Counted from the first letter of the stretch, positions 3,421 to 26,823 are shown. The stretch is DNA of 64,000 nucleotides from Deltaproteobacteria bacterium RIFCSPHIGHO2_02_FULL_44_16 (GCA_001798185.1 MGRM01000005.1:19925-83924), one strand, 5' to 3'. Notes: a model not told the origin generated them from the letters alone. Numbers and translations are program-made.

Positions 3421-5579
3421 AAATTTTAAGTACCCTTGGTCCCGCCTCGTTGAAAAAAGAGATCATTCAAAAGTTAGATGTGCTTGGTGTTGACATTTTT
3501 CGTATTAATCTTTCCCATGTGGGTCTCGATGTTCTCGAGCAGATCATTTGCACCATCAAAGAAGCGACTTCAAAACAGATTTGTATTGATACGGAAGGGG
3601 CGCAAATCCGCAATCGATACATGGAAAAGAATGTGCAGGTGAAAGAAAATGCGCTCATTGAACTGACCTCTCAAGAAGTGCTTGGCAATGAACGTCTGCT
3701 TTCACTTTCACCGACCTTTGCGGTCGATCTCATTGAAGAGGGGAGTTTTGTCAGTATCGATTTTGATTCTGTCTTTTTACACGTGATTGAAAAAAAACCG
3801 GGGAAACTCATTGCCAAAGTTCTTTCGGGCGGCACGATCGGAAGTAATAAGGCTGTGACGGTCGATCATCCGGTAGCTCTCCCGGTGCTTTCAGAAAAAG
3901 ATGAAAAAGCCATCGAGCTTGCAAAAAAATATGGCATTGATTGTTACGCACTTTCATTTGCTTCAAGCGCCAAAGCGGTGAAGTATGTTCGCGAACGTAT
4001 AGGATCATCGGCATTTTTAATCTCAAAAATTGAAAGTCGGCAGGGTGTTCGCAATGTGGACGAAATTCTTGAGGTCACTGATGCAATTCTGATTGATCGC
4101 GGCGATCTTTCGCGTGAAGTGGCCATTGAAAAAATTCCCTTTCTTCAAAAACTTCTGATTCAAAAAGCGAATGAGAAAAAAGTGCCAGTGTTCGTTGCAA
4201 CAAATCTTCTCGAATCAATGACTGATCGTCGGAAACCGACACGCGCTGAAATGAATGATGTCATGAATACACTTCTTGATGGAGCCGATGGCCTTGTTTT
4301 AGCGGCTGAGACTGCAGTGGGAAAACATCCGCGCGATTGTGTGGCTCTTGTCTCCTCGTGTATTCAGCACTTTCAGGAATGCACCAAGATAAAATCTTGT
4401 GATGATCTTCTGGCAGATCATTCCTTTTTTCTCACAGCACCACACGGTGGGACATTAGTAGAAGCGTTGTCGGAAAAGAGAGATCGAGAGGAACTTTCTG
4501 CTTTTCCAACTCTTTTTGTGGATGAAACCACCTTGATGGATGCAGAGCAGATTGCCATTGGAACCTTTTCTCCGCTTCGTGGATTTATGACGCGTGAAGA
4601 GGTGCAGCATGTTCTTTCTGACTATGCTTTGCCAACAGGAACACCTTGGCCTCTTCCTATTCTCTTTCAAGTATCACAGGAACAAGCTGCACGTTGTCGT
4701 GAAAACAAATGTGTTGCTCTTGCGTCGTCGCAAACAAAACAAGTTCATGCGCTTCTTCAGGTAACCGATGTTTATCCTTATGATCTTAAAAAGCTCGCTC
4801 GTGAGATGTATGGAGTTGACACTGAAGAGCATGCTGGAGTGAAGCGTCTTCTGAAAAATGAGGGATGGTTTGTGGGCGGAGAAATAACGCTCGTGAGCAG
4901 ATTGCCGCGTCCTCTGAAACGTTATGAACTCACGCCTCGTCAGACGCGCATTATTTTTGAACATCAGGGATGGAGTCGTATCGTCGGTTTTCATACACGC
5001 AATGTGATTCATCGCGCGCATGAAGCGCTTCAACTCACGGCGCTCGAAAAATATGGATGCGATGCGCTTTTTGTGCATCCGGTGGTGGGCCCAAAAAAGA
5101 AGGATGACTATACATCTGAAGTGATTCTCAAAAGTTATGAACATATGGTGGAACATCATTATCCTTCGCAGGTGCTCTTAGCAGCCTTCTCTACGTTTTC
5201 GCGATATGCAGGTCCACGCGAAGCGGTCTTTACAGCGCTTTGCCGGAAAAATTTCGGATGCAGTCATTTCATTATGGGACGCGACCACACAGGTGTCGGA
5301 GAGTTTTATGCAGCCGATGCGTCCCAGAAGCTTTTTTCCGAAATGGGAGATTTAGGAATTCAACCTGTTTTCTTTGATCGTGTTTCCTATTGCGATAAAT
5401 GTGGTCGTCATGTGGAAACATGCGAGCATGGAGAAGCAGCGCATCTTTTTATCAGTGGAACCAAAGCGCGAGAGATGTTGATGGCAGGAGAACGACCCCC
5501 GGAATGGTTTATGCGTTCGGATATCTCAGATCTTTTAATGAAAGCGATGAAGGAAGGAAAAGAAGTCTTTGTCTCCTAA
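3417..5579 (+). CDS. sat: Fusion protein: an N-terminal pyruvate-kinase-like barrel domain joined to a complete ATP sulfurylase (sulfate adenylyltransferase) with its PUA-like and catalytic domains.
   Basis: The first ~330 aa align with pyruvate kinase (LGPAS, IDTEGAQIRN, RGDLSREV, MTDRRKPTRAEMNDVMNTLLDGADGLVLAAETAVGK). The C-terminal ~390 aa carry ATP sulfurylase motifs (GTFSPLRGFM, FHTRNVIHRAHE, GRDHTGVG). Confidence 0.8.
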   Translation: MKILSTLGPASLKKEIIQKLDVLGVDIFRINLSHVGLDVLEQIICTIKEATSKQICIDTEGAQIRNRYMEKNVQVKENALIELTSQEVLGNERLLSLSPTFAVDLIEEGSFVSIDFDSVFLHVIEKKPGKLIAKVLSGGTIGSNKAVTVDHPVALPVLSEKDEKAIELAKKYGIDCYALSFASSAKAVKYVRERIGSSAFLISKIESRQGVRNVDEILEVTDAILIDRGDLSREVAIEKIPFLQKLLIQKANEKKVPVFVATNLLESMTDRRKPTRAEMNDVMNTLLDGADGLVLAAETAVGKHPRDCVALVSSCIQHFQECTKIKSCDDLLADHSFFLTAPHGGTLVEALSEKRDREELSAFPTLFVDETTLMDAEQIAIGTFSPLRGFMTREEVQHVLSDYALPTGTPWPLPILFQVSQEQAARCRENKCVALASSQTKQVHALLQVTDVYPYDLKKLAREMYGVDTEEHAGVKRLLKNEGWFVGGEITLVSRLPRPLKRYELTPRQTRIIFEHQGWSRIVGFHTRNVIHRAHEALQLTALEKYGCDALFVHPVVGPKKKDDYTSEVILKSYEHMVEHHYPSQVLLAAFSTFSRYAGPREAVFTALCRKNFGCSHFIMGRDHTGVGEFYAADASQKLFSEMGDLGIQPVFFDRVSYCDKCGRHVETCEHGEAAHLFISGTKAREMLMAGERPPEWFMRSDISDLLMKAMKEGKEVFVS

Positions 5580-6105
5580 ACAAGCTCCTATTTTTTGGAT
5601 GACCGGTTTGTCTGGCGCTGGCAAAACGACCCTCGTCAATGCGGCGATCCGTGAACTTTCAGCTGAAGGATATCGTATCAAAGTGCTCGATGGCGATGTG
5701 GTGCGACTGGAAGTCAATCCCCATTTAGGTTTTACGCCAGAGGATATCCGAGAGAATAATCGTATTATTGCAACCCTCTGTCTTGAGCATCGTCCTCATC
5801 ACGATCTTCTTTTTGTTCCGGTGATTACCCCCTTTGAAGATATACGAAACGAAATTCGAAAACGAATTGGGGAAGGATTTTTTCTCATTTATCTCAAGAC
5901 ATCGTTACAGACGGTGATGCAACGAGATGTCAAAGGGCTCTATCAAAAGGCTTTAAAAAAAGAGATTGATCATGTGATCGGTTTTGATGAGCGCGTTCCG
6001 TTTCAGGAACCAACGCATCCAGATCTTGTGATTCATACAGAGAAAGAAATGTTAACTGAATCGACGGATTGCTTTTTGACGTTTATTCGAAAGGTTTTAG
6101 ATTAA
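5569..6105 (+). CDS. cysC: Adenylylsulfate (APS) kinase.
   Basis: The P-loop WMTGLSGAGKTT is present with APS kinase length and context. The ORF track places a TTG start at 5569. Confidence 0.85.
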   Translation: MSPKQAPIFWMTGLSGAGKTTLVNAAIRELSAEGYRIKVLDGDVVRLEVNPHLGFTPEDIRENNRIIATLCLEHRPHHDLLFVPVITPFEDIRNEIRKRIGEGFFLIYLKTSLQTVMQRDVKGLYQKALKKEIDHVIGFDERVPFQEPTHPDLVIHTEKEMLTESTDCFLTFIRKVLD

Positions 6106-6108
6106 GCG

Positions 6109-7725
6109 ATGGGTGAGCAGATATATACGGTGATTGGTTCAGGTCCGAGTGCGGTGCATGCGGCCCTCACGTTATTAGAGCGAGGAAAACGTGTTCGCCT
6201 TCTCGATGTGGGAGAAGAAGAAAAACCGATTCCATATCCTGAAGTCAATTTTTTGGAATTGAAATCAAAACTTTCTGATCCTTTTCGTTTTTTCCTCGGA
6301 GAACATGCAGAAGGGGTTCTTTCTCCAAATAGAGAAGAAATTTTTTCCTATCCTCCTGTACGAAATTTTCATGTTTCCTCTCACAATCCTTATTTTCGTG
6401 TTGAGGGAAAAGAATTTGTTCCGATTGTTTCGCACAATCGTGGCGGTCTCGGAGTAGCGTGGGGTGCGAACTGTCTGCCATACGATGCTGACGACATGAG
6501 AGATTTTCCGGTCTCTTCCCAGGAGTTTGCGAGTGCCTATGAGCGCGTGGGAAAACGCATTGCGATTTGCGGTGAACGTCAGGAGGAGGGGGGATCTTTT
6601 TTACCTCTTAATCGACATGATGCGCAGGTATGGAAAAAATATCTTGAGCACCAACATCTTCTGCAGAAAAAATTTCGCATCGTGATGGAACGCGCGCGAA
6701 TGGCGGTGGATACAGATCCACATTCGCCAACCCGTTGTATTTCGTGCAATCGTTGTTTGTGGGGATGTGGAGTGGGAGCGATTTATAATCCGACAGCCAC
6801 CCTTGAACTCTGTCGACGGTATGAACAATTTGAATATCGCTCCGGCATCTACGTTACCTCGTTTGGGATTGAACACGGAAAAGTGACGAAGATTCATTTT
6901 TTCGATATCCCTCGACAGCAATTCGATACTCTCTCAGCTGAAACTGTTTTGCTCGGTGCTGGTGCTCTCAGTAGTGCTGGCATCTTCTTACGAACGCTCA
7001 AAAATGACCCACAGTTCGCTCCTCAATGGAAAGAGCGTCAGCTCCGAACGCGGTCGGTGATGGATACGCAGGTCATCAAGCTCCCCTATCTTTTATGGCG
7101 TGCGCTTGGGAGTCAGGTTGATCCTCATGATTTTCAATTTAACAAGCTTATTCTCGGATATATGAATGAAACCTGTTCGCACTACCCTCGTTATGTTCAT
7201 GCAGAAGTGCTTTCGCTTTCGAGTTTGCTCTATCATCCTCTCATCGAATCGCTCCCGTTTGGAAGTCGCGATTCAGCTCGAATCTTCGCACAGATTCGAT
7301 CAGCGCTGGGTGTGGCGACTTATTTTCTTCCGGATCGACCGTATGGAGAGAATGGTATTTCCTTGGAACCTGATGGGGGAACCATTACCGGCGATCGTTT
7401 AAAAATTACGTATCAAACAGATCCTCAAAAAATGGCATTGGCTGAAGAAGCGTGTCAATATACCCGACGCGTTTTTCGTCGCCTTGGATGTTGGATGCCA
7501 AAAAAGAAGATGCTTCAGCCAAAACCGGGAAGCGGGATTCATTATGCCGGAACGATTCCGATGTCGAAAGAACGTGATATCCTCTGTATCGATTCGAAAG
7601 GTGCAAGTTTTGCCTATCCGAATTTGTATGTCATCGATGGTTCTGGCTTTCCAACGCTTCCTTCAAAAAGCATTACCTTTTCATTGATGGCAAATGCGAC
7701 ACGCATTGCGGAACATGTTTCCTGA
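6109..7725 (+). CDS. GMC family FAD-dependent oxidoreductase.
   Basis: The N-terminal FAD dinucleotide fold is VIGSGPSAVHAA and the C-terminal GMC-type motif is GSGFPTLPSKSITFSLMA. Confidence 0.65.
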   Translation: MGEQIYTVIGSGPSAVHAALTLLERGKRVRLLDVGEEEKPIPYPEVNFLELKSKLSDPFRFFLGEHAEGVLSPNREEIFSYPPVRNFHVSSHNPYFRVEGKEFVPIVSHNRGGLGVAWGANCLPYDADDMRDFPVSSQEFASAYERVGKRIAICGERQEEGGSFLPLNRHDAQVWKKYLEHQHLLQKKFRIVMERARMAVDTDPHSPTRCISCNRCLWGCGVGAIYNPTATLELCRRYEQFEYRSGIYVTSFGIEHGKVTKIHFFDIPRQQFDTLSAETVLLGAGALSSAGIFLRTLKNDPQFAPQWKERQLRTRSVMDTQVIKLPYLLWRALGSQVDPHDFQFNKLILGYMNETCSHYPRYVHAEVLSLSSLLYHPLIESLPFGSRDSARIFAQIRSALGVATYFLPDRPYGENGISLEPDGGTITGDRLKITYQTDPQKMALAEEACQYTRRVFRRLGCWMPKKKMLQPKPGSGIHYAGTIPMSKERDILCIDSKGASFAYPNLYVIDGSGFPTLPSKSITFSLMANATRIAEHVS

Positions 7726-8647
7726 TGAAAATAAAAAAGATGTTTTTGTGACTGGTGCTCACCGATCTGGCTCGAGTTGGATTGGAAAGATGTTGGCTCT
7801 TGGAGAAAATATTTGTCTTCGAGATGAAGAAATTTTTCATCGTTATTGGGAGTTGGCAAAAGCTCCTTTTGAAAAAATGCATGCGTATATTTGTCAGGAG
7901 AATGAACATCACTATCTCCCTTATGTGAATCGTATGGTGAACAATCGTTTCCATTTAGCACGAGCGATGGCGCATATTCGTTCAGCGCGAGATGTAGGTC
8001 GTGTTGTGAAGCGTCAGGGAGTTTTTTGGAGGCGACAACTTCAATCAGCAGAACGCACGATTTACATTGAACCGATCGGACTGTTTTCTGCTGAATGGTT
8101 TTCTCAGAAATTTCATACCGATATGCTTCTCGTGATCAGGCATCCAGCTTCTTTTGTGAGTAGTTTGAAAAGTTTGAATTGGGGTTATAACTTCAATGAT
8201 CTTCTTGAACAACCTCTTTTAATGGACCGCTATTTATCGCGATTTCGCCATGACATGGAGAGAGCTCCTCGTAAACCGGATGTGGTTGGTATCGGCATTC
8301 TTCTCTGGAAAATTTTGTATTCTGTAGTTCATCAGTATCAACAACAGCATCCTGACTGGATTTTTATTCGACATGAAGATTATGCGCAACATCCAGAAAA
8401 AAAGTTTCAAGAACTCTATCAGCGTTTACACTTTCCGTTTACAACAACAGTAGAGCAGACTATTTCCGATTATACTTCTCCCTCTAATCCAACGGAATTT
8501 TCTGGAAAAAGAGATGACTCTCGTCGCAATAGCCGTGAAACAATTCATATTTGGAAAACTCGTTTAACAGAAGAAGAGGTGAAGCGCATTCGTGATGGTG
8601 TGGAAGAAGTCTCTTCGTTTTTCTATGATGGAGCGAGTTGGGAATGA
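7715..8647 (+). CDS. PAPS-dependent sulfotransferase.
   Basis: A 5'-PSB-like loop (TGAHRSGSSW) and a 3'-PB-like motif (RHPASFVSS) are present. The gene lies immediately downstream of the sat-cysC PAPS module. Confidence 0.7.
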   Translation: MFPDENKKDVFVTGAHRSGSSWIGKMLALGENICLRDEEIFHRYWELAKAPFEKMHAYICQENEHHYLPYVNRMVNNRFHLARAMAHIRSARDVGRVVKRQGVFWRRQLQSAERTIYIEPIGLFSAEWFSQKFHTDMLLVIRHPASFVSSLKSLNWGYNFNDLLEQPLLMDRYLSRFRHDMERAPRKPDVVGIGILLWKILYSVVHQYQQQHPDWIFIRHEDYAQHPEKKFQELYQRLHFPFTTTVEQTISDYTSPSNPTEFSGKRDDSRRNSRETIHIWKTRLTEEEVKRIRDGVEEVSSFFYDGASWE

Positions 8648-9084
8648 AACAGGAACTGACGCGGATAGTTCACTATCTTTTTGGTATGTCTGCCGGGAAT
8701 GCTGCTTTTTCTTCCCTGTATGAAGAGAACGTGCATCGCATTTGTGCCGGTTCAAATCCAAGTCCTTTTTCGCATCTGGTATCGAAGGTTGCACTCAAAC
8801 ACCGATTTTTTTTAATGTTGCTCGATCCATGGACTCGTCTTTTTGATCCTAAAAGTCTTCTTCGATGTAAGCTTAATTTTGTAGTGGCATTAGCAGAATG
8901 TGATCCTCTCTTATGCTTGAAACTTCAAAGAAAAACACAAGGAGATATGATTTCTGTGATGATCATCGGTCTCTGGCTCGTCATTCGATGGGCAATGTTT
9001 CTGCTGGTGGGAACTCTTTTGGTAGCATTTTTAAAATGTATTTCGGTGGTGAAACGAAATGAAGCATTCCTTTTTTCACGATAA
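8638..9084 (+). CDS. Hypothetical small membrane protein.
   Basis: This 148-aa ORF fills an otherwise empty 400-bp gap and has a C-terminal hydrophobic helix. No family was recognised. Confidence 0.3.
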   Translation: MGMKQELTRIVHYLFGMSAGNAAFSSLYEENVHRICAGSNPSPFSHLVSKVALKHRFFLMLLDPWTRLFDPKSLLRCKLNFVVALAECDPLLCLKLQRKTQGDMISVMIIGLWLVIRWAMFLLVGTLLVAFLKCISVVKRNEAFLFSR

Positions 9085-9814
9085 AAATATCCTTATCACG
9101 GGAGCGAGTCGCGGGCTTGGGCGTGAACTGGCGCTTCACTGTGCTTCGCAAGGTGCACGCGTGTTTGCCATTGCACGTGACGAAGAAAAACTTCGTCTCT
9201 TAGCGGCAACGTCATCGCATATTCATCCCTATGTTGCCGACATTACGCAAGCAGCATGGTCAGACCAACTTCGTCGCATTCTTCACGAATATCCCATCGA
9301 CATTGCGATTCTGAATGCTGGCATCAAAGAACGATCAGAGCATCTCTTTTCACTTCCATCGGTAGAACGAACATTTGCCGTGAATGTTTTTGGTGCTTGT
9401 CGAACGGTTGAGGTTTTGCTTCCGCAGATGAGAGAGCAACAACATGGTCATCTTGTTTTTATTTCGAGTATGGGGGCTCATCACGGCATGGTTCAAGCTT
9501 CTGGATATAATGCTTCGAAGGCAGCGCTCCTGAACTTAGCCACCTCTTTACGTATGGATCTTGTTCGAGAAAAAATTCCGATCACCGTTACCGTGGTAGA
9601 GCCTGGATTATTTCGCACATCTATGATTTCATCCAAGGGACTCATGAATTGGTTGGCCATGGATGTGAGCGCTGTCTCCAAAAGAATTATAAAAGGGATT
9701 GTTCGTGGTGAAGAAAAAATTGTATGTCCAAAGTGGATGAGCTTTATGACCCAAGTGATTGCCCATGTTCCAGGACGATGGCAGAGAATGCTGCTGACGA
9801 GAGTGAAATCATGA
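9059..9814 (+). CDS. SDR family oxidoreductase.
   Basis: It has the ITGASRGLG motif, an SDR catalytic region (NASKAA) and a length of 251 aa. Confidence 0.75.
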   Translation: MKHSFFHDKNILITGASRGLGRELALHCASQGARVFAIARDEEKLRLLAATSSHIHPYVADITQAAWSDQLRRILHEYPIDIAILNAGIKERSEHLFSLPSVERTFAVNVFGACRTVEVLLPQMREQQHGHLVFISSMGAHHGMVQASGYNASKAALLNLATSLRMDLVREKIPITVTVVEPGLFRTSMISSKGLMNWLAMDVSAVSKRIIKGIVRGEEKIVCPKWMSFMTQVIAHVPGRWQRMLLTRVKS

Positions 9815-10575
9815 CTCATCTTTCCGTAATTATTCCGGTCTACAATGCTGAAGCGTTCGTGAAACAGAATGTCCAGAAGGTATTGGCGGAACTTGCAACA
9901 CAATCTTTTGCTTGGGAAGTGATCGCTGTCGATGATGGCAGTCGTGATCGATCTCTTCTCTTTCTGCAAGAGCTCGCCAAAGAAAATCCAGAGCTTCGAG
10001 TCGTTGAAAGCAAGTGTAATCGAGGAAAGGGACACGCCGTTCGATTGGGGATCGAACATGCGCAAGGACATTATGTGGTCTTTAATGATGTCGATTTAGC
10101 CTATCCCGTCAGTGAAATCTTTCGGCTCTTAGCGGTGCTTGAAAAAGGGACCGATATTGCTATTGCTTGTCGGGTGTTACCTGAATCTCGCTATGAAATC
10201 AGCCCTGCCTTTTTTCGTTATCTGTATACGCGCCATGTGATGGGACGTTTTTTTAATCTCCTTGTTCGCAAGCTCTTGCTTCCTGGCCTTTTGGATACAC
10301 AGGCAGGGCTTAAAGGTTTTCGGGCAGAAGTGGCGAAAACCGTTTTTGCGCGCCAAACTCTTTTTCGTTTTAGTTTTGATGTCGAAATTCTCTATATTGC
10401 GCAAAAATTCGGTTTCAAGATTGAACAGGTGCCAATTTTCTTTCGTTATTTCTTTGAGGAAACAACCGTCCGTTTTTTTGAGGATACGGTGAAGATGGTA
10501 AGTGATTTGTGTCGAATTAAATTGAATGATTGGAGAGGGCGATACAGTGCGACAACTCCTTGTAAATGCCGATGA
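9811..10575 (+). CDS. GT2 polyprenyl-phosphate glycosyltransferase (GtrB/ArnC/DPM1-like).
   Basis: LSVIIPVYNAE...VIAVDDGSRD is a GT-A DxD-type signature. The start at 9811 makes an ATGA overlap with the upstream SDR. Confidence 0.8.
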   Translation: MTHLSVIIPVYNAEAFVKQNVQKVLAELATQSFAWEVIAVDDGSRDRSLLFLQELAKENPELRVVESKCNRGKGHAVRLGIEHAQGHYVVFNDVDLAYPVSEIFRLLAVLEKGTDIAIACRVLPESRYEISPAFFRYLYTRHVMGRFFNLLVRKLLLPGLLDTQAGLKGFRAEVAKTVFARQTLFRFSFDVEILYIAQKFGFKIEQVPIFFRYFFEETTVRFFEDTVKMVSDLCRIKLNDWRGRYSATTPCKCR

Positions 10576-11404
10576 CTTCGGAATTTCCGAAGGCGTGAGT
10601 CGTGGCATTCTGTATTGCTATCAGAAGGGGATTGTTCGTTCTGCTTCGCTCATGGCAAATTTCCCTTCGTTTGAGACTGCGGTCTTGCTCGCACGACAAA
10701 ATCCTGGACTGAAAATAGGAGTGCATCTCAATGCGACCTCTGGAGTTCCGCTTCTTTCTCCAAAAACGATTCCTTCACTTGTGAGCTCACAAGGGATGTT
10801 TTATGCTCTGCATCCCTTGATTTCGCGCATGGTGTTGGGAAAGCTTGAGATGCCTGAACTCGAACAGGAATGGGCGGCTCAGATCGAACGTGTTCTTGGA
10901 GCTGGTCTCCAGCCGACGCATTTGGATACGCATCAACACGTGCACGGTTTTCCTGTCATTCGAAAACTCGTCACCCATTTAGCAAAACGTTTTTCCATTC
11001 CTCGAACGCGTCAGATGACAAACCTTCTTCGTCGAGGATTATATCTTCGTTCTCAGATGCTGTGGGATCGACACACCTATAGTGGTTGTCTGAAGACGCT
11101 GTTGCTTTCGATGCTCTCTCCTTTTGGTTCGCATGAGAAGAGGAAGAGACATTTGCTCGGAGTAGGGTATGTCCCTCAAGGTCAGTATCAGTCAGCACTG
11201 TTGCACTATTTCAAACATCTTCCGGAGAGCGATTCAGAACTTGTGTGCCATCCTGGATTTGTCGATGCTGAGCTTTCGCGCTGGGATCAGTGGACGCACA
11301 TGCGTGAGGAAGAATTAAAAGTGCTTTCTTCTTCGCAAACCTGGGACGCTCTTCAACATTATGGAGTTCATTTAGATGACACATCCTCTTCATTCCATTC
11401 GTGA
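10526..11404 (+). CDS. YdjC/ChbG/HpnK family carbohydrate deacetylase.
   Basis: The N-terminal LVNADDFGIS motif is typical of YdjC-like deacetylases. Confidence 0.7.
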   Translation: MIGEGDTVRQLLVNADDFGISEGVSRGILYCYQKGIVRSASLMANFPSFETAVLLARQNPGLKIGVHLNATSGVPLLSPKTIPSLVSSQGMFYALHPLISRMVLGKLEMPELEQEWAAQIERVLGAGLQPTHLDTHQHVHGFPVIRKLVTHLAKRFSIPRTRQMTNLLRRGLYLRSQMLWDRHTYSGCLKTLLLSMLSPFGSHEKRKRHLLGVGYVPQGQYQSALLHYFKHLPESDSELVCHPGFVDAELSRWDQWTHMREEELKVLSSSQTWDALQHYGVHLDDTSSSFHS

Positions 11405-12050
11405 TCAAGTTCGTCACCTTTATTGGCGTGAAAGCATGGGGCCATTTTTTGATCGCCTCTTTACACGTTTACGACTGAAGGTACTTCCTCTCGAAGTTCT
11501 CAATACGGTAGTTCCTGCTCAGGGGAAAATAGTTGAGATCGGTTGCGGGCATGGACTCATTTGCAATTATCTCGGTTTAGCAAACCCAGAACGTGAAATC
11601 ATTGGAGTCGATATCGATCCTCGTCGCATGACCATGGCAAAAACAACCTTGAATGGAAGGGAAAATGTTCATTTTCAAGAAGGACGTTTTGAACATTTTC
11701 ATTTTATCAATCTCGACATGGTCATTCTTTTTGGAGTTCTCTGTGTCATTCCGATCCGATATTGGGATGAACTCTTCGCCAATATTCATCGCGCGCTCAA
11801 GCCTGGTGGAGAGTTGCTCCTTCACGATATCCGTGTTGATGATTCAATGCTCTTTCGTCTTCACACCTTCAAAGAAACACTTTTTCGTGTGGTTGGCATT
11901 ACACGAGGTGAAGGAGTGAATGTGATGCCGCCAGATGTTTTGGAAAAGAGAATGATGCAATACGGTTTTACCGTTCGTGCACTTGGGCCCGAACTTGATG
12001 TCCCTTTTCACTCCTGTTTTACATGGCTTCTCACAAAACAATCACACTAA
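11376..12050 (+). CDS. Class I SAM-dependent methyltransferase.
   Basis: VEIGCGHGL (motif I) and LKPGGELLL (post-II) are present. Confidence 0.65.
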   Translation: MTHPLHSIRDQVRHLYWRESMGPFFDRLFTRLRLKVLPLEVLNTVVPAQGKIVEIGCGHGLICNYLGLANPEREIIGVDIDPRRMTMAKTTLNGRENVHFQEGRFEHFHFINLDMVILFGVLCVIPIRYWDELFANIHRALKPGGELLLHDIRVDDSMLFRLHTFKETLFRVVGITRGEGVNVMPPDVLEKRMMQYGFTVRALGPELDVPFHSCFTWLLTKQSH

Positions 12051-13567
12051 GTATCTTTGTGCTCATCCTCCTTCTTGCCTGCGGCTTAGGGTTCATGGCG
12101 GTTTTTGGAAACTTTGATACCAATGAAGGATGGTATGCCAACGATCTCTTTTTGGTCAGTCAAGGAATGCGACCTTACGAAGATTTTTTCTATCATCGGC
12201 TTCCGCTGTTTCTTTATAGTTTTGTCCCTTTTCAGTCATTCATCAGCATTGATTGGATCACGCTGCGAATTTTTTCAGCACTCTTTTTGTGGCTTGCTGC
12301 GTGTGGACTTGTTTGGCTGTTATGGGGACGTGTCCGACCTGCGCTGATCTGTTTGGCTATCGGACTTCTGTGCGTCAATATTCATGGCCTTCACATTTTT
12401 GCGACCGTGCAAGTCTATTCTATCGTGGCCTTTTTCTATATCGTGATACTTCTGGTTGTCGAAAAAGTTCGTACAGCATGGCTTTCTGTTCTTTTTTTTG
12501 CCTGTTTGTGTGTTGTTGCGCAGTGGATGCGTTATCCGATTGATTATCTCCCCTTTGTTTTTTTTCTTTATCTTTTCGTCGTCTTTTGGGGTCGCTGGTC
12601 GTTGATGTTGTTAGGCCTCGTTGTTTACGTGAGCTTGCACGCATTTCTTCTCTCACAGTTTGCTTCGGAGAAATTTTTTCATCACATCATTTTTGGTATG
12701 AATCCTTTTCAATATCTTCAGGGAGAACTTCCGAAGCTCGAGTTTGGATCGATGGCATGGTTGCGTTATAAGTCCGATTGGCTTCTCTCTGGCGTGCGTT
12801 GGTTTTTCCCTCTTTTGCTTTTGGGATTTCCCTTGCTTGTAGTTTTTTTCTCCCGGTACAAGTTTCGTTTTTGGTTGAATCGTTCTTTTCTTGCGAAACA
12901 TCGTGGAGCTTGGCTCGCATTTCTTCTCGTTACCGGAAATACAAGTATGTATCTTCTTGCTCCGGAAGGTCACCCGGTTCAACTCTATTATATTTTCCCT
13001 GTGTTGCTGTATCTTCTGTGTCATCTTCTCGATTGGGGTTTCTCGTTTTCACCTCCAATGCCACGATATGCCTTTTCGACAATGACCTTTGTTCTTGTGT
13101 TGAGTGCCCCTTGGCTGCATGACCGCGATGTTCGTCTCTCTTCCACGGCTCGCGATACTGCAATTGTCGCTCAGATAGCGACAGAGTTAAAAAAACATTG
13201 CTCTGCTGGTGAAGAGCTGCTTACGTTTACTCCGCTCGTGGCCATGGAAAGCTCCATGCGAGTGACTCCTGGACTTGAGTTTGAAACCTTTAGTTATTTT
13301 GATTCATTATCGACGTCAGAAGCAGCACAATATGGATTGATGAATCGTGAATTGTTGGTGCAACGTGTTCAAGAAAAACAACCTTGTGCGATTCACTTGG
13401 ATAACCGATTTCATCAAACTCAAGGAAATGCAGCTCGTTTACGTGCGATGCAAAAGGATTTTTTGCGCACCGTGACATTTCATTATCTTCCGCCTTCTTC
13501 CTTGGCTGAAACAGGATGGGAAGCGTTACGAGGACCAGTCTTCCTCTATTTTCGTCGTGAAAGTTAG
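12023..13567 (+). CDS. Polytopic membrane glycosyltransferase, GT-C fold (PMT/ArnT/GT39/83-like).
   Basis: This is a 514-aa protein with about 11 predicted transmembrane helices and an N-terminal region resembling dolichyl-phosphate-mannose/ArnT-type transferases. It is grouped with the GT2 and YdjC genes. Confidence 0.55.
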   Translation: MASHKTITLSIFVLILLLACGLGFMAVFGNFDTNEGWYANDLFLVSQGMRPYEDFFYHRLPLFLYSFVPFQSFISIDWITLRIFSALFLWLAACGLVWLLWGRVRPALICLAIGLLCVNIHGLHIFATVQVYSIVAFFYIVILLVVEKVRTAWLSVLFFACLCVVAQWMRYPIDYLPFVFFLYLFVVFWGRWSLMLLGLVVYVSLHAFLLSQFASEKFFHHIIFGMNPFQYLQGELPKLEFGSMAWLRYKSDWLLSGVRWFFPLLLLGFPLLVVFFSRYKFRFWLNRSFLAKHRGAWLAFLLVTGNTSMYLLAPEGHPVQLYYIFPVLLYLLCHLLDWGFSFSPPMPRYAFSTMTFVLVLSAPWLHDRDVRLSSTARDTAIVAQIATELKKHCSAGEELLTFTPLVAMESSMRVTPGLEFETFSYFDSLSTSEAAQYGLMNRELLVQRVQEKQPCAIHLDNRFHQTQGNAARLRAMQKDFLRTVTFHYLPPSSLAETGWEALRGPVFLYFRRES

Positions 13568-13597
13568 AAAAAATTAACACTCTTAAAGGAGAAAAGT

Positions 13598-14449
13598 ATG
13601 AAAAAAGGAAATTTTATTCAGAACTGGGATGTGAGTTACGAAGAATTAGCCACCACCTATAATGATGATCATATTCAATCGCGAGATGATCTGCTCCAAC
13701 TGCTCGAGTATGAATATGTGTACGAAGACATTATAAAAAATATCAAAAAACCAATTCATGAAATCAAAACCTTGGAAATTGGCTGCGGTGGAGCTCGTGT
13801 TTCTGTCTATTTGGCAAAGAAGGGGATGCAGGTCACCTGTACGGATAATGCTCGCGAAGCCTTGCGTTTAGCAGAAGCCAATTTCAAAAAAGAAAATGCA
13901 AAAAATTATACGTTAGTCGAAGATGATCTTTTGCATTCTAAACTCATTCCCGAGTCCTATGATGTGGTCATGAGTTTCGGATTGTTAGAGCATTTTCGAG
14001 ATCTTGATGAACTCTTTACAGCGATGTCTCGTTTTATTCGACCAGGTGGGATTCATATCCACGATATTATTACCAAACGATTTTCAATACGAAAGGTGAC
14101 AGAAATTTGGAATACGATTGCTCGTTTTTTGAAAAGATTTTTTACATTTCAATGGAAGAAAATGTTTACAGAAAGCTATATTCCCTTTCCTCATTATGAA
14201 AATAGTTATTCGCTTGATCAATATGTCGAAGCTATGGATCGCAGTGGATGTAATCTTGTTTATCGTGGCGGTATGGTTTTCTGGACATTTTTTGCACTTC
14301 CACGTTCTTGGCAAAGAGCTCTTGTAAGCTGGGCAAAACGTCATCCCGATTTTTTCCGCAACCTCGATCGTTCAGGGAAAAAGTGGATGGAAGTTGTGGG
14401 AGCAACGTGGTGGCTTGTTGGAAAGAAAAGAGAAAAAATAGGCTCTTAA
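13598..14449 (+). CDS. Class I SAM-dependent methyltransferase.
   Basis: LEIGCGGARVSVYLA is motif I. A good RBS (aaaggagaaaagtATG) precedes the start. Confidence 0.65.
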   Translation: MKKGNFIQNWDVSYEELATTYNDDHIQSRDDLLQLLEYEYVYEDIIKNIKKPIHEIKTLEIGCGGARVSVYLAKKGMQVTCTDNAREALRLAEANFKKENAKNYTLVEDDLLHSKLIPESYDVVMSFGLLEHFRDLDELFTAMSRFIRPGGIHIHDIITKRFSIRKVTEIWNTIARFLKRFFTFQWKKMFTESYIPFPHYENSYSLDQYVEAMDRSGCNLVYRGGMVFWTFFALPRSWQRALVSWAKRHPDFFRNLDRSGKKWMEVVGATWWLVGKKREKIGS

Positions 14450-16237
14450 GTGAAAATCTATTTTCTTTTTGAAAGAAATAAAAAACTACTGCGTTCTTTT
14501 ATCCAAGAGCATGCTCCAAAGCGACTCTTTGTGTCGCCGATGCTTCAAGAAGAATGTAGAGCGCAAGGAGTTGAGTGTACTTCTCTTGATGATCTTGGCG
14601 ATTTCTCTCAAGGAGAAATGAGTTACGCTCTTCGTGCTCGAGCTTTTTTGGATGAACTTCTGGTGCTTCATCGGAAACATGGATTTTTAAGGCTGAAGCA
14701 AGTTTCGTTTTTGGAAATAAATACGGCGCCGCTGATTCTTTACTATCTTCAAAAAAGTTTTCGGCTTCTTGAAATTACAGAAAAATTTCTCAATACGTTG
14801 CAGCCGATACAGGTGATTCTTAGTTCCAGTGATCACGATGTGGCTCGAGTGGTTTACGAGGAGTGTCTCCAAAGAAAAATTGAAGTTGAAGTTTTAGATC
14901 ACAAGAGAGGCAAAAAGATTTTTCCTTTTGCTCGTTCACTTGTATGGTTTTTGCGCGAGATCATGCTTTCATTTCGTTTTTTCGGAAAGCGTCAACCCAT
15001 TTCTCCCTGTCATGTTTTAATGGTGTGTAATGTGAAGCGACAATTTGAATCTTTTATTCCGGTGATTGAACAATTATTGAAGAGAAAGAATCAGCGACTT
15101 TGCGTTCTCACGAAATTTCCCTTGGATCCTTCACAACGTATTGTGAATGAGCGTTTACAATACATCACGTGGGCATCTGTGCGATCATATGGATATATTC
15201 CTCATCTTCTTTTATCGTGTGTGCGTCTTCTGAATTGTGAGCGAAGAAATTCTTTTACGAATCTCATTCAAACTCATGGTTTTCTTCGATGGATGCTTCA
15301 GAAGTGGTTTTCAGTAATGTGTTTGCGATCCGTGCGTGCTCTGGAGCTTTCTGGACGTGTGCTTCAAAAAACAAAGCCTCAGGTTATTGTCGTCAGTGAT
15401 GTTTCCGATTATGAAGCCAAAAGTATCACTGCTCTTGGGAAGTTCAAACAATGTAAAACCTTTTGTCTGCAGTATGGAATGCTTGCACCTCAAGATAGTG
15501 AATGGCATTATTTGCACCAGGATTACGTGGGAGCTTTTGATCACGAGAGCGCACATATCATGGCCGGTCATGGTATTGAACATCATCGTATTATTGTTAC
15601 CGGAAATCCACGCTTTGATCTCTATCGTCAAAATAAAAGGATGAGAAATGAATTTCGTGAGATACGTAACATTCCAAAAAATGCGCGGCTCGTTGCATTT
15701 ATGTCAGTCCCTGTTGCTTCTGAGGAAACTGGCGGGATTGAATCTGGTATGACCAAAAGCGAATATGAAACTATTCTGGAGACAATTTATGGACTTCTCA
15801 ACGACATGGATGGAATTTTTCTGGTCGTCAAGCCGCATCCAGAAGAAGATATTTCAATTCATCAAAAATTTCGTGCTGCTTCTCAGGAAGATCACTTTAA
15901 ATTTGTCACCAATTGCTCCGCGTATGAACTGCTCAACGCTGCAGATATTGTGATTACGCTTTATTCCACGACAGCACTTGAGGCGGTGTATCTCGACAAG
16001 CCGCTCTTTCTCCTGAATTTTCGACAAGGTGCAGATCTCGTCGATATTGCTGAGAGAGGTGCTGCCGTAAGCATTCGTTCGCGTGAAGAACTGGTGCAGG
16101 CTCTTCGCGATTATTTCCGGAATACAGAGATGGAAAAGAAATATGGTGAAGGAAGAAAACAATATCTCGCACAAATGGGAATAAAACCCGGAGAGAGTGC
16201 TTCGCGATGTGCGGAAGTGATCATGTCATTACATTAA
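14450..16237 (+). CDS. Capsule polysaccharide biosynthesis protein, GT-B-like (KpsC/KpsS or TagF-type glycosyl/phosphotransferase).
   Basis: The C-terminal half (VVKPHPEE...ADIVITLYSTTALEAVYLDKPL) resembles the KpsS/TagF catalytic domain. The ORF has a GTG start. Confidence 0.45.
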   Translation: MKIYFLFERNKKLLRSFIQEHAPKRLFVSPMLQEECRAQGVECTSLDDLGDFSQGEMSYALRARAFLDELLVLHRKHGFLRLKQVSFLEINTAPLILYYLQKSFRLLEITEKFLNTLQPIQVILSSSDHDVARVVYEECLQRKIEVEVLDHKRGKKIFPFARSLVWFLREIMLSFRFFGKRQPISPCHVLMVCNVKRQFESFIPVIEQLLKRKNQRLCVLTKFPLDPSQRIVNERLQYITWASVRSYGYIPHLLLSCVRLLNCERRNSFTNLIQTHGFLRWMLQKWFSVMCLRSVRALELSGRVLQKTKPQVIVVSDVSDYEAKSITALGKFKQCKTFCLQYGMLAPQDSEWHYLHQDYVGAFDHESAHIMAGHGIEHHRIIVTGNPRFDLYRQNKRMRNEFREIRNIPKNARLVAFMSVPVASEETGGIESGMTKSEYETILETIYGLLNDMDGIFLVVKPHPEEDISIHQKFRAASQEDHFKFVTNCSAYELLNAADIVITLYSTTALEAVYLDKPLFLLNFRQGADLVDIAERGAAVSIRSREELVQALRDYFRNTEMEKKYGEGRKQYLAQMGIKPGESASRCAEVIMSLH

Positions 16238-16246
16238 GGAGCCTTT

Positions 16247-17524
16247 ATGAATTATGCTGCACTTGAAAAATGTCGTATTTGTGGATCTCCCCATTTGACG
16301 CCAGTCATTGATTTGGGAGCTCAGATGCTTGCCACGGTGACAGTTACTGAGGAGAATAAAGATCGATATCCAAAAGAAAAGGTGCCGTTGGTCGTGGTGC
16401 GTTGCGATAAAGAAAAAAATCCAAAAGGATGTGGACTAGTACAGATGAAATATACGTATCCCAGCACAAATATTTATCGTGAATATTGGTACCGTTCGGG
16501 GGTCAATCAAACTATGCGCGATGTTCTCAAGGATGTGGTCGAATCTGCGATGCGTCGAGTTGACCTGCGTCCAGAAGATACGGTGCTTGATATCGGATGC
16601 AATGATGGAACTTTGCTCAGCAATTATGATCCAAAACTCAATCGTATTGGAATTGATCCTGTCGAAAATATTCGAGGAGAAAACGAAACATTTACGCGTG
16701 TCATCGGTTTTTTTAATGCGGCGAATTTCAATCGTGTTGCCAAAGGAAAAAAGGCAAAGATTATGACGAGTATTGCCATGTTCTATGACCTGGAAGACCC
16801 AAATGCGTTTGTCGCTGATATCGCAACGTGTTTAGCCGATGATGGCATCTGGATCGTGCAAATGGCAGATCTCCCGGAAATGCTTCAAAACAATATGTAT
16901 GATCAAATTGTTCATGAACATCTGGAATACTATCATATCGAACCTTTTCGTTATCTCGTTGAGCAGCATGGACTGAAAATTGTCGATATTGAGAAAAACT
17001 TGGCAAATGGAAGTAGCTATCGATTCTCGGTGCGCAAAGAGGGGAGTGCGTCTCCTTCCCCAGAGGCGCACAAGCGAATGGAACAATGGATGAAGGAAGA
17101 AGAAGCCCTTCATTTAACAGGTGAAGCTATTTACGATCGTTTTCGAAAAGATGTTTTGAACACGAAAGAAGAGCTCATTCGCTTTGTTCGAAGTGAACGC
17201 GCAAAAGGGAAAACGATCTTTGGTTATGGAGCTTCGACGAAAGGGAATGTTATTTTACAGTATTGCGGTTTTACGTCTGAAGATATCTCCTGCATTGCAG
17301 ATCGTAATCAATATAAATGGAATGGAGAAACAGTCGGGACGCATATTCCGATTATTTCAGAAGAAGAGGCGCGTCGCCAAAAACCGGACTACTTTCTCGT
17401 TCTTCCATATTACTTTGCGCAAGAAATGATGGTGAGAGAAAAAGAATATTTAAAGCATGGCGGGAAATTTGTGATTCCGCTTCCCCATGTCTCCTTGCTT
17501 GATGCGAGTGCCTTGCCCGCGTGA
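16247..17524 (+). CDS. Sugar C-methyltransferase (TylCIII/NovU-like): zinc ribbon, SAM methyltransferase domain and C-terminal C-methyltransferase domain.
   Basis: An N-terminal CRICGS zinc ribbon is followed by a class I methyltransferase core and a C-terminal domain. It sits adjacent to the GDP-sugar dehydratases. Confidence 0.6.
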   Translation: MNYAALEKCRICGSPHLTPVIDLGAQMLATVTVTEENKDRYPKEKVPLVVVRCDKEKNPKGCGLVQMKYTYPSTNIYREYWYRSGVNQTMRDVLKDVVESAMRRVDLRPEDTVLDIGCNDGTLLSNYDPKLNRIGIDPVENIRGENETFTRVIGFFNAANFNRVAKGKKAKIMTSIAMFYDLEDPNAFVADIATCLADDGIWIVQMADLPEMLQNNMYDQIVHEHLEYYHIEPFRYLVEQHGLKIVDIEKNLANGSSYRFSVRKEGSASPSPEAHKRMEQWMKEEEALHLTGEAIYDRFRKDVLNTKEELIRFVRSERAKGKTIFGYGASTKGNVILQYCGFTSEDISCIADRNQYKWNGETVGTHIPIISEEEARRQKPDYFLVLPYYFAQEMMVREKEYLKHGGKFVIPLPHVSLLDASALPA

Positions 17525-18513: not shown

Positions 18514-18528
18514 CCACAAGGATGACGC

Positions 18529-19569: not shown

Positions 19570-19579
19570 AGGGGAAATA

Positions 19580-19969
19580 ATGATGATTCATATACCAGTG
19601 TCAGTAGGTGAGCTTCTGGACAAGATGACAATTTTGGAGATCAAAACAGAACGCATTGCCGATGCGAAGAAAAGAAAAAATTGTCAGAAGGAATACGATC
19701 TTCTGGAACATATCGCGAAGACTCACGGTATTCTTTTCATGGCTGAGCGTGCAGAGTTGAAGCGTGTGAATGAATGGCTTTGGGAGATTGAAGATTCTAT
19801 GCGAAAGAAAGAAGCCAAAAAAGAATTTGATCAGGATTTTATTGAACTCACGCGAGATGAATACCGAGCAAATGATACGCGAGCGAAGATTAAAAAGGAA
19901 ATTAATCTCGCGTCTGGATCAGAGCTTATCGAAGAAAAGGAATATGTTGCCTACGATCTGAATAAATGA
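19580..19969 (+). CDS. Hypothetical protein.
   Basis: A strong RBS (aaaggggaaataATG) precedes this charged 129-aa protein. No family was recognised. Confidence 0.45.
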   Translation: MMIHIPVSVGELLDKMTILEIKTERIADAKKRKNCQKEYDLLEHIAKTHGILFMAERAELKRVNEWLWEIEDSMRKKEAKKEFDQDFIELTRDEYRANDTRAKIKKEINLASGSELIEEKEYVAYDLNK

Positions 19970-26758: not shown

Positions 26759-26764
26759 ACTTTC

Positions 26765-26823
26765 GTCATCCCCGCTTACGCGGGGATCTCATGAGATTCC
26801 CGCTTCCTGCATGCGGGAATGAC
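26765..26823. repeat. Double-hairpin palindromic repeat element, family 1, full copy.
   Basis: The sequence is gtcatccccgc-ttac-gcggggat ctcatg agattcccgc-ttcctgcat-gcgggaatgac. It lies intergenic between the dprE1-like and dprE2-like genes. Its ATG (26791) creates a spurious upstream ORF start. Confidence 0.7.

Follow-up and report, generated by a model that had tools for sequence, protein, structure and literature searches.

The DNA analyzed here, a 64,000-nucleotide stretch from Deltaproteobacteria bacterium RIFCSPHIGHO2_02_FULL_44_16 (GCA_001798185.1 MGRM01000005.1:19925-83924; hereafter the window), carries within positions 9811-13567 four overlapping plus-strand open reading frames (ORFs) that encode a family 2 glycosyltransferase (GT2), a YdjC-family deacetylase, a class I S-adenosylmethionine (SAM)-dependent methyltransferase, and a 514-aa membrane protein. 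We put at roughly 60% the probability that these four genes are the core of a predicted extracytoplasmic glycosylation system of the Gtr/Arn/Lgm type. The four ORFs are:

9811-10575, plus strand: GT2 glycosyltransferase, 254 aa (Pfam Glycos_transf_2, PF00535, E=7e-29)
10526-11404, plus strand: YdjC-family carbohydrate deacetylase, 292 aa (285 aa from position 10547 according to the gene caller; Pfam PF04794, E=7e-65)
11376-12050, plus strand: class I SAM-dependent methyltransferase, 224 aa (Methyltransf_12/23/25/11, E=1e-14 to 5e-16)
12023-13567, plus strand: membrane glycosyltransferase of predicted GT-C fold, 514 aa, with about 11 transmembrane helices and a C-terminal alpha/beta domain (366-514)

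All four ORFs were recovered in the order and at the positions given by a first-pass annotation of the window, whose family assignments also held, by Pfam matches for the GT2, YdjC, and methyltransferase proteins and by fold for the membrane protein. The GT2 start codon overlaps the stop codon of an upstream short-chain dehydrogenase/reductase (SDR) gene as ATGA (4 nt), and the YdjC, methyltransferase, and 514-aa ORFs each overlap the preceding ORF by 28-50 nt. Because the genes overlap and promoter-like or terminator-like sites between 3000 and 17000 showed no excess over shuffled sequence, the genes look like part of one long operon. Homologs of the module, with 31-64% identity, occur in the same arrangement on independent metagenome and metagenome-assembled genome (MAG) contigs, and we therefore regard the genes as real. 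The window matches identically a 141-kb metagenome contig in the European Nucleotide Archive (ENA), on which we read the Pfam families of neighboring genes, and the proteins it encodes have identical counterparts in the NCBI MAG Deltaproteobacteria bacterium RIFCSPLOWO2_02_FULL_44_10, in which the three from the module that we looked up (GT2, YdjC, and methyltransferase) are annotated "hypothetical protein."

The first-pass annotation had assigned the GT2 to the enzymes that load sugars onto polyprenyl phosphate. Its top seven matches among PDB sequences were all dolichol-phosphate mannose synthase (DPMS), GtrB, or ArnC; DPMS 5mlz was the best (residues 4-211), GtrB 5ekp was second, and ArnC contributed three entries, including 9bhc. 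E. coli ArnC is 25% identical to it (E=9e-17). As a control, we ranked the matches of another GT2 from the window (42888-43973), for which Leloir-type GT2s came first, DPMS 10th, and ArnC and GtrB last, indicating that the resemblance to polyprenyl-phosphate transferases is specific to the GT2 at 9811 and that the assigned signature is indeed present. The DVD motif (residues 93-95), DTQAGLKGF, and FSFDVE (FxFDxE) are invariant in seven orthologs. NCBIfam models for Dol-P-hexose transferase, AglJ, and PpgS gave near full-length alignments that all scored below cutoff, the best at 64.7 bits against equivalog cutoffs of 423-529 and PpgS (GT2 residues 6-209) at 41.5 against 370; with no match at equivalog level and all scores this far below the cutoffs, the sugar cannot be named from them. 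Hydropathy revealed no transmembrane helix in the GT2, only amphipathic helices at 142-159 and 215-236, and in this it resembles the PpgS/Ppm1-D2 subtype, which lacks such helices, rather than GtrB or ArnC. We predict from these comparisons that the GT2 is a polyprenyl-phosphate hexos(amin)e synthase of the DPM1/GtrB/ArnC/PpgS type.

The deacetylase scored 219.9 bits against a PF04794 cutoff of 29.7, carries the motifs NADDFGIS, GVHLN, and HLDTHQHVH, and matched the PDB entries 2i5i, 7vi8, and 8jqe; the patterns ADD(F/Y)G, G(V/I/L)H(L/I), and H(L/I)DxHxH(V/L/I)H are kept in five orthologs and cover the Asp/His catalytic and metal motifs of the family. It fell short of the NCBIfam equivalog cutoffs for both ChbG (174.3 versus 227) and HpnK (139.8 versus 232.6) and is, as judged by these profile scores, a clear member of the family and not an equivalog of either enzyme. 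The methyltransferase has a motif, (V/I)E(I/V)GxGHG, that is conserved among its orthologs. Its PDB matches were generic, covering the SAM-binding core only and including both N- and C-methyltransferases, so N- and O-methylation cannot be told apart on this basis.

The 514-aa protein matched no Pfam or NCBIfam family at E<=0.01, and searches of PDB sequences with phmmer and with a family profile returned nothing or chance matches at E>1. Its close homologs numbered 8 among 5.8 billion proteins, and its profile retrieved 1,607 relatives at E<=1e-3, 38 of them at E<=1e-30, from 1.84 billion cluster representatives. PMT_2 (PF13231), the profile of the ArnT/PMT family (CAZy GT83/GT39), was matched by 17 of 47 sampled distant relatives (best E=4.7e-10). 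The search with ArnT/PMT_2 hidden Markov models proposed by the first-pass annotation was thus positive for a share of the distant relatives and negative for the protein itself. An AlphaFold model built from an eight-sequence alignment (predicted local distance difference test score, pLDDT, 82.7; predicted TM-score, pTM, 0.85) was compared with the PDB by Foldseek. ArnT (5ezm) came first (E=4.6e-7, TM-score 0.56), and the top 14 matches were all GT-C proteins, with STT3, PglB, ALG9, AglB, ALG3, and AftB following. From the fold matches led by ArnT and the PMT_2 matches of the relatives we conclude that the 514-aa protein is, as modeled, a GT-C-fold enzyme whose catalytic activity is predicted, and that its lineage is a divergent sister group of PMT_2 that lies outside the curated threshold, a GT-C family not classified before.

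Two other readings of the 514-aa protein were tried and rejected. As a transporter it would resemble the MFS, MurJ, or Wzx folds, which were matched only at E>0.3 with probability <0.1; as a Wzy-type polymerase it gave no significant fold match, and that role is filled by the protein encoded at 30645-32060, whose syntenic gene in a related locus (L018, see below) is a Wzy_C gene. With both possibilities checked, the GT-C call of the first-pass annotation stands, as does its count of about 11 transmembrane helices. We derived the topology from AlphaFold secondary structure, hydropathy, and the positive-inside rule, which together predict 11 transmembrane helices, a cytoplasmic N terminus, and a periplasmic location for both the loop at 29-77 and the C-terminal domain (366-514), which is mixed alpha/beta in the model. 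This helix count is within the range of 7-13 for the GT-C_A fold. The basic loops are at 101-106, 149-152, 189-193, and 280-293. The first helix (4-28) is followed by two short loop helices (35-46 and 61-65). E35 and R82 are invariant in 47 family sequences, and D54, F55, P61, and R170 are present in at least 90% of them; the invariant polar residues E35, D41, D54, H58, R59, T128, Q130, Q167, R170, D174, K250, H317, and Q320 all fall in predicted periplasmic loops or helix ends. GT-C enzymes place a catalytic carboxylate at the start of the first loop helix (PMC11127046), and E35 holds the corresponding position here, in the first helix of the periplasmic loop. The hallmark first extracytoplasmic loop with short helices and a conserved Asp/Glu (E35, D54) is therefore present, its catalytic role being predicted. 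Two other membrane ORFs of the window that have no assigned family showed no relationship to the GT-C profile by hhalign.

We then compared every protein of the window with all related loci that we fetched and went through the genes called in each locus. Two related loci came from scans of 185,579 species genomes and five from scans of Joint Genome Institute (JGI) metagenomes; because so few were found, the synteny statistics rest on about ten loci. The arrangements were:

GT2, YdjC, methyltransferase, GT-C: the window (L001), L004/L005 (JGI 3300045950), and L006
GT2, YdjC, a different methyltransferase (MTS-type), GT-C: L009 (Deltaproteobacteria MAG nzgw173)
The same functions in shuffled order within 8.6 kb: L007
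GT2, methyltransferase, GT-C, with no YdjC in between: L010, L016, and L017
GT2, two methyltransferases, GT-C, with no YdjC in between: L011
Methyltransferase, GT-C: L014
GT-C without GT2, directly after a wzi gene: L008/L013

The constant core across these loci is GT2, methyltransferase, and GT-C; YdjC is an accessory found in about half, and none is encoded in the whole 20.7 kb of L016. The gene for the 224-aa methyltransferase always lies directly upstream of the GT-C gene and overlaps it, and its orthologs abut the GT-C in L004, L006, L010, L011, L014, L016, and L017. With YdjC optional and the methyltransferase gene invariably next to that of the GT-C, the methyltransferase cannot serve generally to N-methylate a freed amine. 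The N-methylation step suggested by the first-pass annotation therefore does not extend to the family at large, YdjC being absent between GT2 and methyltransferase in L010, L011, L016, and L017. Two loci show the GT-C in other company. Between L009 (9288-11461) and the window (11376-13567) the genes are colinear and the flanking proteins about 60% identical; the GT-C is only 24% identical and the methyltransferase before it is MTS/PrmA-like. This difference in identity suggests that the methyltransferase and GT-C pair was replaced as a cassette, possibly altering acceptor or donor specificity. In L008 (8382-11539; MAG RIFCSPHIGHO2_02_FULL_40_28), a GT-C homolog of 34% identity stands alone directly downstream of wzi, which encodes a capsule assembly lectin, with no GT2 or methyltransferase within 10 kb.

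The linkage bears on the view that adjacency reflects nothing more than a shared locus, with the GT2, YdjC, and methyltransferases acting on nucleotide sugars or on a repeat unit linked to undecaprenyl diphosphate (Und-PP) and the GT-C-fold protein serving as a polymerase, a ligase, or a noncatalytic component. Polysaccharide loci often pack unrelated tailoring genes together, the substrates of the methyltransferase and YdjC are not readable from sequence, and GT-C-fold proteins without transferase activity exist, PIGU being among the fold matches. Yet the linkage of GT2, methyltransferase, and GT-C persists despite extensive shuffling of the neighboring genes, the Wzy-type polymerase of the locus is already accounted for, and the 514-aa protein keeps an invariant carboxylate and basic residues where active GT-C enzymes use such residues. 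We consider a mere sharing of the locus improbable.

The module sits within a larger conserved cassette that includes a glucose-methanol-choline (GMC) flavoenzyme, an SDR, a sulfotransferase, and genes for the supply of 3'-phosphoadenosine 5'-phosphosulfate (PAPS). The window encodes these partners and a downstream flippase as follows (FAD, flavin adenine dinucleotide; APS, adenosine 5'-phosphosulfate; MOP, multidrug/oligosaccharidyl-lipid/polysaccharide):

3405-5579, plus strand: pyruvate-kinase-like (PK-like)/PUA/ATP-sulfurylase fusion (Pfam PK, PUA_2, ATP-sulfurylase), PAPS supply
5569-6105, plus strand: APS kinase (Pfam APS_kinase), PAPS supply
6109-7725, plus strand: GMC-family FAD oxidoreductase, 538 aa, no signal peptide (Pfam GMC_oxred_C, E=6e-12; weak Fer4 at 206-239)
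7694-8647, plus strand: cytoplasmic sulfotransferase, 317 aa (Pfam Sulfotransfer_1, Sulfotransfer_3)
8638-9084, plus strand: small protein, 148 aa, one C-terminal transmembrane helix (120-138), no Pfam/NCBIfam family match
9059-9814, plus strand: SDR oxidoreductase, 251 aa (Pfam adh_short, E=2e-40), translationally coupled to the GT2
13598-14449, plus strand: second class I SAM methyltransferase, 283 aa, directly downstream of the GT-C (Pfam Methyltransf_11/25/12 and TehB)
14450-16237, plus strand: soluble transferase, 595 aa, resembling Glyphos_transf and "surface carbohydrate biosynthesis protein" (Pfam PF04464, E=1e-12)
20835-22202, plus strand: MOP-family (Polysacc_synt/MurJ-like) flippase by Pfam, candidate exporter of a lipid-linked sugar or repeat unit

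Traveling with the core in related loci are the GMC enzyme, the SDR, a Sulfotransfer_1-type sulfotransferase, the small protein with one transmembrane helix, the PAPS genes, a second methyltransferase, and a Glyphos_transf-like protein of 520-595 aa; the first three recur in L004, L007, L009, L010, and L016. GMC orthologs (42-50% identity) were found in L004, L007, and L016. The GMC enzyme, which is cytoplasmic, contains a Cys cluster, CISCNRCLWGC (CxxCxxCxxxC), that is the source of its weak Fer4 matches and that presumably resembles the 3Fe-4S motif of membrane-associated FAD sugar dehydrogenases. Its best PDB matches were pyranose oxidase and FAD-glucose dehydrogenase, and it is probably the sugar oxidase or dehydrogenase of the cassette. 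SDR orthologs lie within the cassette in L004, L006, L007, and L016. A PDB search with the SDR retrieved generic SDRs only, neither DprE2 nor a sugar-specific SDR; it is probably the cassette member that reduces a keto-sugar intermediate. Sulfotransferase orthologs adjoin the GT2 in L004, L009, and L010, and the L016 cassette also holds a sulfotransferase. Orthologs of the PAPS genes occur in L009, and in L007 an APS kinase adjoins the GT2. Fusion of a PK-like N-terminal region to ATP sulfurylase is unusual, and the presence of PAPS genes with a Sulfotransfer_1 enzyme inside a glycan locus (3405-8647, plus strand) predicts a sulfated bacterial surface polysaccharide. The small protein has homologs in L004 and in L007, where it is fused to a methyltransferase. 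A second methyltransferase also flanks the GT-C in L007, L011, and L016. Orthologs of the 595-aa protein, which scored below cutoff against NCBIfam BFO_1060 and TIGR04396, follow the GT-C in L004, L006, L009, L010, and L011. A MOP flippase is kept downstream of the cassette in L004, L006, L009, and L016, and the window encodes a second one at 43934-45433.

Two paralogous proteins of the sulfatase/alkaline-phosphatase superfamily (22165-24030 and 34463-36427, plus strand; 621 and 654 aa) each have an N-terminal extension of 210-240 aa, and one paralog is kept downstream of the MOP flippase in L004, L006, and L009. Since hydropathy shows no transmembrane helices in either, they are not LtaS/EptA-like.

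The cassette is itself part of a glycan locus of about 59 kb (91 to ~59,400), all on the plus strand except for a minus-strand membrane-protein ORF (31896-33221) and a deacetylase gene (47462-48340), the latter being the sole PF01522 gene, distant from the module and on the opposite strand. The locus encodes NeuB, an oxidoreductase, a CMP-transferase, Gmd/Rmd, a C-methyltransferase, the two MOP flippases, the Wzy-like polymerase, several Leloir glycosyltransferases, FkbM methyltransferases, Wzz, and Wzi (convergent to Wzz). A secreted FG-GAP/MopE repeat protein is also encoded. The nonulosonic-acid genes (NeuB, a GFO/IDH oxidoreductase, and the CMP-transferase) and a GDP-mannose branch (Gmd, an Rmd-like reductase, and a sugar C-methyltransferase with Methyltransf_13/14) lie at 91-2644 and 16247-19569 on the plus strand, and from this gene content the polymer is predicted to contain a nonulosonic acid and a C-methylated 6-deoxyhexose. 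At 36424-38926 (plus strand), a CDP-alcohol phosphatidyltransferase-like protein, a GAPDH-like dehydrogenase, and a HAD phosphatase are encoded in a row that is kept in L018; this trio may supply a phospho-alcohol (glycerol- or glycerate-type) substituent of the glycan.

This setting bears on the acceptor. The first-pass annotation named lipid A or the glycan, with lipid A as its leading scenario, and such a module could modify lipid A or core in the manner of Francisella FlmF2-NaxD-FlmK, Bordetella LgmABC, or Arn, placing a free-amine hexosamine on lipid A phosphates with a less negative charge and resistance to cationic peptides as the consequence. ArnT is the best structural match of the GT-C, a trio of GT2, YdjC, and GT-C is the exact composition of the Flm/Naa and Lgm systems (PMC11279074, PMC4993483), and the organism is diderm, as it encodes Wzi and Wzz. 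Against this, the module lies inside a polysaccharide locus and is translationally coupled to glycan genes; its conserved partners (methyltransferase, sulfotransferase, GMC enzyme, and SDR) do not occur in lipid A systems, half of the relatives dispense with YdjC, the GT-C fails the PMT_2/ArnT profile, and the GT-C homolog in L008 adjoins wzi. Neither a lipid A gene nor a two-component regulator is linked within the locus. Given this Wzx/Wzy/Wzz/Wzi setting, the glycan made by the locus itself is a likelier acceptor than lipid A; we found nothing that points to lipid A and regard such a modification as unlikely. The effect on surface charge and cationic peptide resistance predicted by the first-pass annotation needs correction as well: with a sulfotransferase and PAPS genes in the cassette, the net effect on charge could be anionic rather than cationic.

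The acceptor might also be a secreted or surface protein, with the GT-C acting as a PMT- or TfpW-like protein O-glycosyltransferase. The PMT_2 and PMT profiles matched by the distant relatives include protein O-mannosyltransferases, oligosaccharyltransferase (OST), PglB, and PMT structures are among the fold matches, and the locus has its secreted repeat protein. In the related loci, no acceptor protein gene is consistently linked; the linkage is instead to Wzx, Wzy, sugar-nucleotide, and Wzi genes, and we judge a protein acceptor very unlikely.

A second lipid-linked donor pathway appears to lie in the same locus. At 24027-27576 (plus strand), the window encodes a HAD-UbiA fusion of 471 aa (24027-25442), a DprE1 homolog of 439 aa (25439-26758; E=4e-69 against mycobacterial DprE1), and an SDR/DprE2-like protein of 261 aa (26791-27576). 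As judged by sequence similarity, this block looks like a pathway from polyprenyl-phosphate ribofuranose to an arabinofuranose donor of the type described by Kelly et al. in 2024 (PMC11127046). The 514-aa GT-C might then serve this pentofuranose pathway, by way of the HAD-UbiA polyprenyl-phosphoribose synthase (PPPRS) and the DprE1/DprE2-like pair, leaving the GT2 at 9811 as an ordinary Leloir enzyme of the repeat unit. Such pathways need a GT-C, and GT136 also has about 11 transmembrane helices and a C-terminal domain, ArnT as its closest relative, and an acidic motif after its first helix (PMC11127046). The linkage argues otherwise. The contig Ga0484001_0001648, otherwise syntenic with the window, lacks the 24027-27576 block; it has GT2, YdjC, methyltransferase, and GT-C yet no UbiA or FAD_binding_4 gene in 39 kb, and neither gene occurs in the 20.7 kb of L016. 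The GT-C always adjoins GT2 and methyltransferase, whereas the PPPRS gene is 10.5 kb away in the window, and the GT2 resembles polyprenyl-phosphate enzymes, unlike the control. A second candidate GT-C-fold protein lies nearer the PPPRS gene. We therefore see little likelihood that the 514-aa protein serves the pentofuranose pathway.

That second candidate (31896-33221, minus strand) is a 441-aa polytopic membrane protein with no Pfam match and 12 homologs found. The top 22 matches of its AlphaFold model (pLDDT 81.4) were to GT-C-fold proteins only (PIGU, PglB, STT3, ALG9, and PimE), all weak (best E=4.7e-3), and it has a D37...Y41...R59 loop after its first transmembrane helix. The model makes it a probable second GT-C enzyme for the locus. 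The genomic contexts of its distant homologs were housekeeping genes and uninformative.

Consistent with a Gtr/Arn/Lgm-type system, GT-C enzymes of this kind need a polyprenyl-phosphate sugar donor and polyprenyl-phosphate GT2s need a GT-C-type user, as in Gtr, Arn, and Lgm (PMC11127046, PMC13390465). The prediction that the 514-aa GT-C uses such a donor draws on its conserved adjacency to a GT2 of this type. What the analysis shows are the families and fold of the proteins, their operon, and their conserved linkage; which sugar is built, by what chemistry and in what order it is tailored, and what accepts it we infer from them as follows. The GT2, peripheral at the cytoplasmic face, would transfer a hexosamine-type sugar, most likely an N-acetylhexosamine (HexNAc), from a nucleotide sugar to polyprenyl (undecaprenyl) phosphate. 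YdjC would strip the N-acetyl group while the sugar is on the carrier, as NaxD and LgmC do, and one or two SAM methyltransferases would methylate the sugar on N or O. The GMC/SDR pair would probably oxidize and then re-reduce it, resulting in epimerization, and the PAPS-dependent sulfotransferase would probably sulfate it with locally made PAPS. A flippase, for which the MOP-family proteins of the locus are candidates, would export the tailored lipid-linked sugar; a MATE-type flippase for ribofuranose linked to undecaprenyl phosphate (Und-P) is a precedent for MOP-type export (PMC11127046). At the periplasmic face, the 514-aa GT-C would transfer the sugar, the likeliest acceptor being the capsule or O-antigen-like polysaccharide of the same Wzx/Wzy/Wzz/Wzi locus. 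The methylation catalyzed by the coupled methyltransferase might be a step needed for export or for recognition by the GT-C.

Several points weigh against this proposal. The GT2 lacks, by hydropathy, the C-terminal transmembrane anchor of the GtrB/ArnC subtype and scores below every NCBIfam equivalog cutoff, so on these comparisons polyprenyl phosphate is a predicted acceptor. The link of the 514-aa protein to GT-C comes from a predicted structure (TM-score 0.56) and transitive homology, without a significant sequence match to a curated GT-C family; when the family profile was aligned by hhalign with E. coli ArnT as a lone sequence, the probability was only 3.7%, with the catalytic loop in register, the family consensus DEGWY aligning with PDETRY of ArnT in this statistically weak single-sequence comparison. 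The scanned ORFs of the window include no GtrA-family (PF04138) flippase, and the region 5000-20000 has no small multi-transmembrane ORF that could be an ArnE/F-type flippase. About half of the related cassettes lack YdjC, which weakens the conversion of HexNAc to hexosamine (HexN) as a general feature. The PPPRS/DprE1/DprE2 pathway could in principle feed the 514-aa GT-C, and the tailoring enzymes could act instead on nucleotide sugars or on an Und-PP-linked repeat unit. Finally, the organism is an uncultured groundwater deltaproteobacterium represented by a MAG, and the proposal is a prediction from sequence.

A more far-reaching version of the proposal, which we offer tentatively and consider doubtful, would make the whole cassette (PAPS synthesis, GMC enzyme, sulfotransferase, SDR, GT2, optional YdjC, one or two methyltransferases, and GT-C) a bacterial assembly line. 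One heavily tailored sugar would be built entirely on polyprenyl phosphate, through N-deacetylation, epimerization via a keto intermediate, methylation, and sulfation, and would be added to the capsule in the periplasm by the unclassified GT-C family. The sulfate might even go onto the freed amine as N-sulfation, in the way of the heparan-sulfate enzyme NDST. If true, such an assembly line would parallel, in bacteria, the sulfation and (transient) methylation seen at the dolichol-phosphate (Dol-P) stage in Halobacterium.

Surface antigens owe much of their diversity to periplasmic three-component glycosylation, and the three-component systems known to us transfer an unmodified or only deacylated sugar. 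The module described here would add a GT-C family that current profiles miss, together with probable redox and sulfation chemistry on a lipid-linked sugar. If our reading is true, it would provide annotation rules for "hypothetical" genes in groundwater deltaproteobacterial MAGs, and glyco-engineering would gain new enzymes for methylated, sulfated, or amino sugars; our reading has no bearing on a long-standing open question.

Among known systems, the first-pass annotation likened the module to ArnC-ArnD-ArnT. The parallel holds for the logic of the Arn pathway of E. coli and Salmonella, in which a GT2 loads Und-P, N-deacylation takes place on the carrier, and a GT-C transfers the sugar; it fails for the deacylase, since ArnD is a NodB-type (PF01522) deformylase and the enzyme here is a YdjC protein. 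ArnC also has C-terminal transmembrane helices that the GT2 here lacks, and the cassette contains neither ArnE/F-like genes nor the ArnA/ArnB genes for 4-amino-4-deoxy-L-arabinose (Ara4N). With the wrong deacylase family, no ArnE/F, and a GT-C that fails PMT_2, the module is not a member of the Arn pathway.

The right analogs are FlmF2-NaxD-FlmK and LgmABC. In these systems a GT2 makes Und-P-HexNAc, a YdjC-superfamily enzyme turns this, still carrier-bound, into Und-P-HexN, and transfer in the periplasm falls to an ArnT-like GT-C (PMC11279074, PMC10927774, PMC4993483). The precedents for a YdjC enzyme with Und-P-HexNAc as substrate are NaxD, known from Francisella and Acinetobacter, and LgmC (PMC11279074, PMC4993483); NaxD acts on Und-P-GalNAc (PMC11279074, PMC10927774), and LgmABC has the equivalent role in Bordetella (PMC4993483). 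Unlike them, the module here lies in a polysaccharide locus rather than a stand-alone operon under PmrAB- or Bvg-type regulation, has a methyltransferase fixed between deacetylase and GT-C along with sulfotransferase, GMC, and SDR partners, treats YdjC as optional among its relatives, has a GT-C outside the PMT_2 profile, and probably has an acceptor other than lipid A.

The Gtr systems (GtrA/GtrB/GtrC) and CsbB/GtcA/YfhO, which glycosylate O-antigen, lipoteichoic acid (LTA), or wall teichoic acid (WTA), share with the module a polyprenyl-phosphate GT2 and a GT-C, which in those systems add a side-branch sugar to a finished glycan extracytoplasmically, and a location in or near glycan loci. 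The sugar moved by Gtr is a hexose or HexNAc without modification, against up to five linked tailoring enzymes here, and the GT-C families differ; with no GtrA, the module is not a Gtr system in the strict sense. In Mycobacterium tuberculosis, PpgS (Rv3631), a GT2 without transmembrane helices, makes polyprenyl-P-GalNAc, Rv3632 is a small membrane partner, and the GT-C Rv3779 puts GalN(Ac) on arabinogalactan (PMC3485146). The cassette here also has a small protein with one transmembrane helix; unlike it, the PpgS system involves no methyltransferase or sulfotransferase, and the GT2 scores far below the PpgS equivalog cutoff.

In Citrobacter youngae ORF15/ORF14/ORF12 (GT136) and the mycobacterial decaprenyl-phosphoarabinose (DPA) pathway, a lipid-linked donor is epimerized on the carrier by DprE1/DprE2, a GT-C adds the side chain, and the flippase is of the MATE/MOP type (PMC11127046). 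The GMC and SDR pair beside the GT2 parallels the DprE1 and DprE2 pair beside the window's own PPPRS gene; the donor synthase here is a GT2 and not a UbiA-type PPPRS, and the flavoenzyme is of the GMC rather than the VAO type. ORF12 has a D31/E34/H106/R349 motif and a beta-rich C-terminal carbohydrate-binding module (CBM) (PMC11127046). Membership in GT136 would imply linkage to a UbiA-type PPPRS gene; for the 514-aa GT-C that gene lies 10.5 kb off in the window and is absent from the 39 kb of Ga0484001_0001648 and from L016, so membership is unlikely. The N-glycan assembly of Halobacterium salinarum is similar in that sulfation, methylation, and epimerized uronic acids are installed at the Dol-P-linked stage before transfer by the GT-C AglB (PMC4335974, PMC11980604). 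That system is archaeal and its oligosaccharyltransferase moves an oligosaccharide to protein, and the likeness drawn here is one of chemistry. The closest functional analogs, by this comparison, would be FlmF2-NaxD-FlmK and LgmABC and, for a glycan acceptor, PpgS/Rv3779 (PMC3485146); new in the module described here are an unclassified GT-C lineage, a methyltransferase locked to the GT-C, and conserved redox and sulfation partners.

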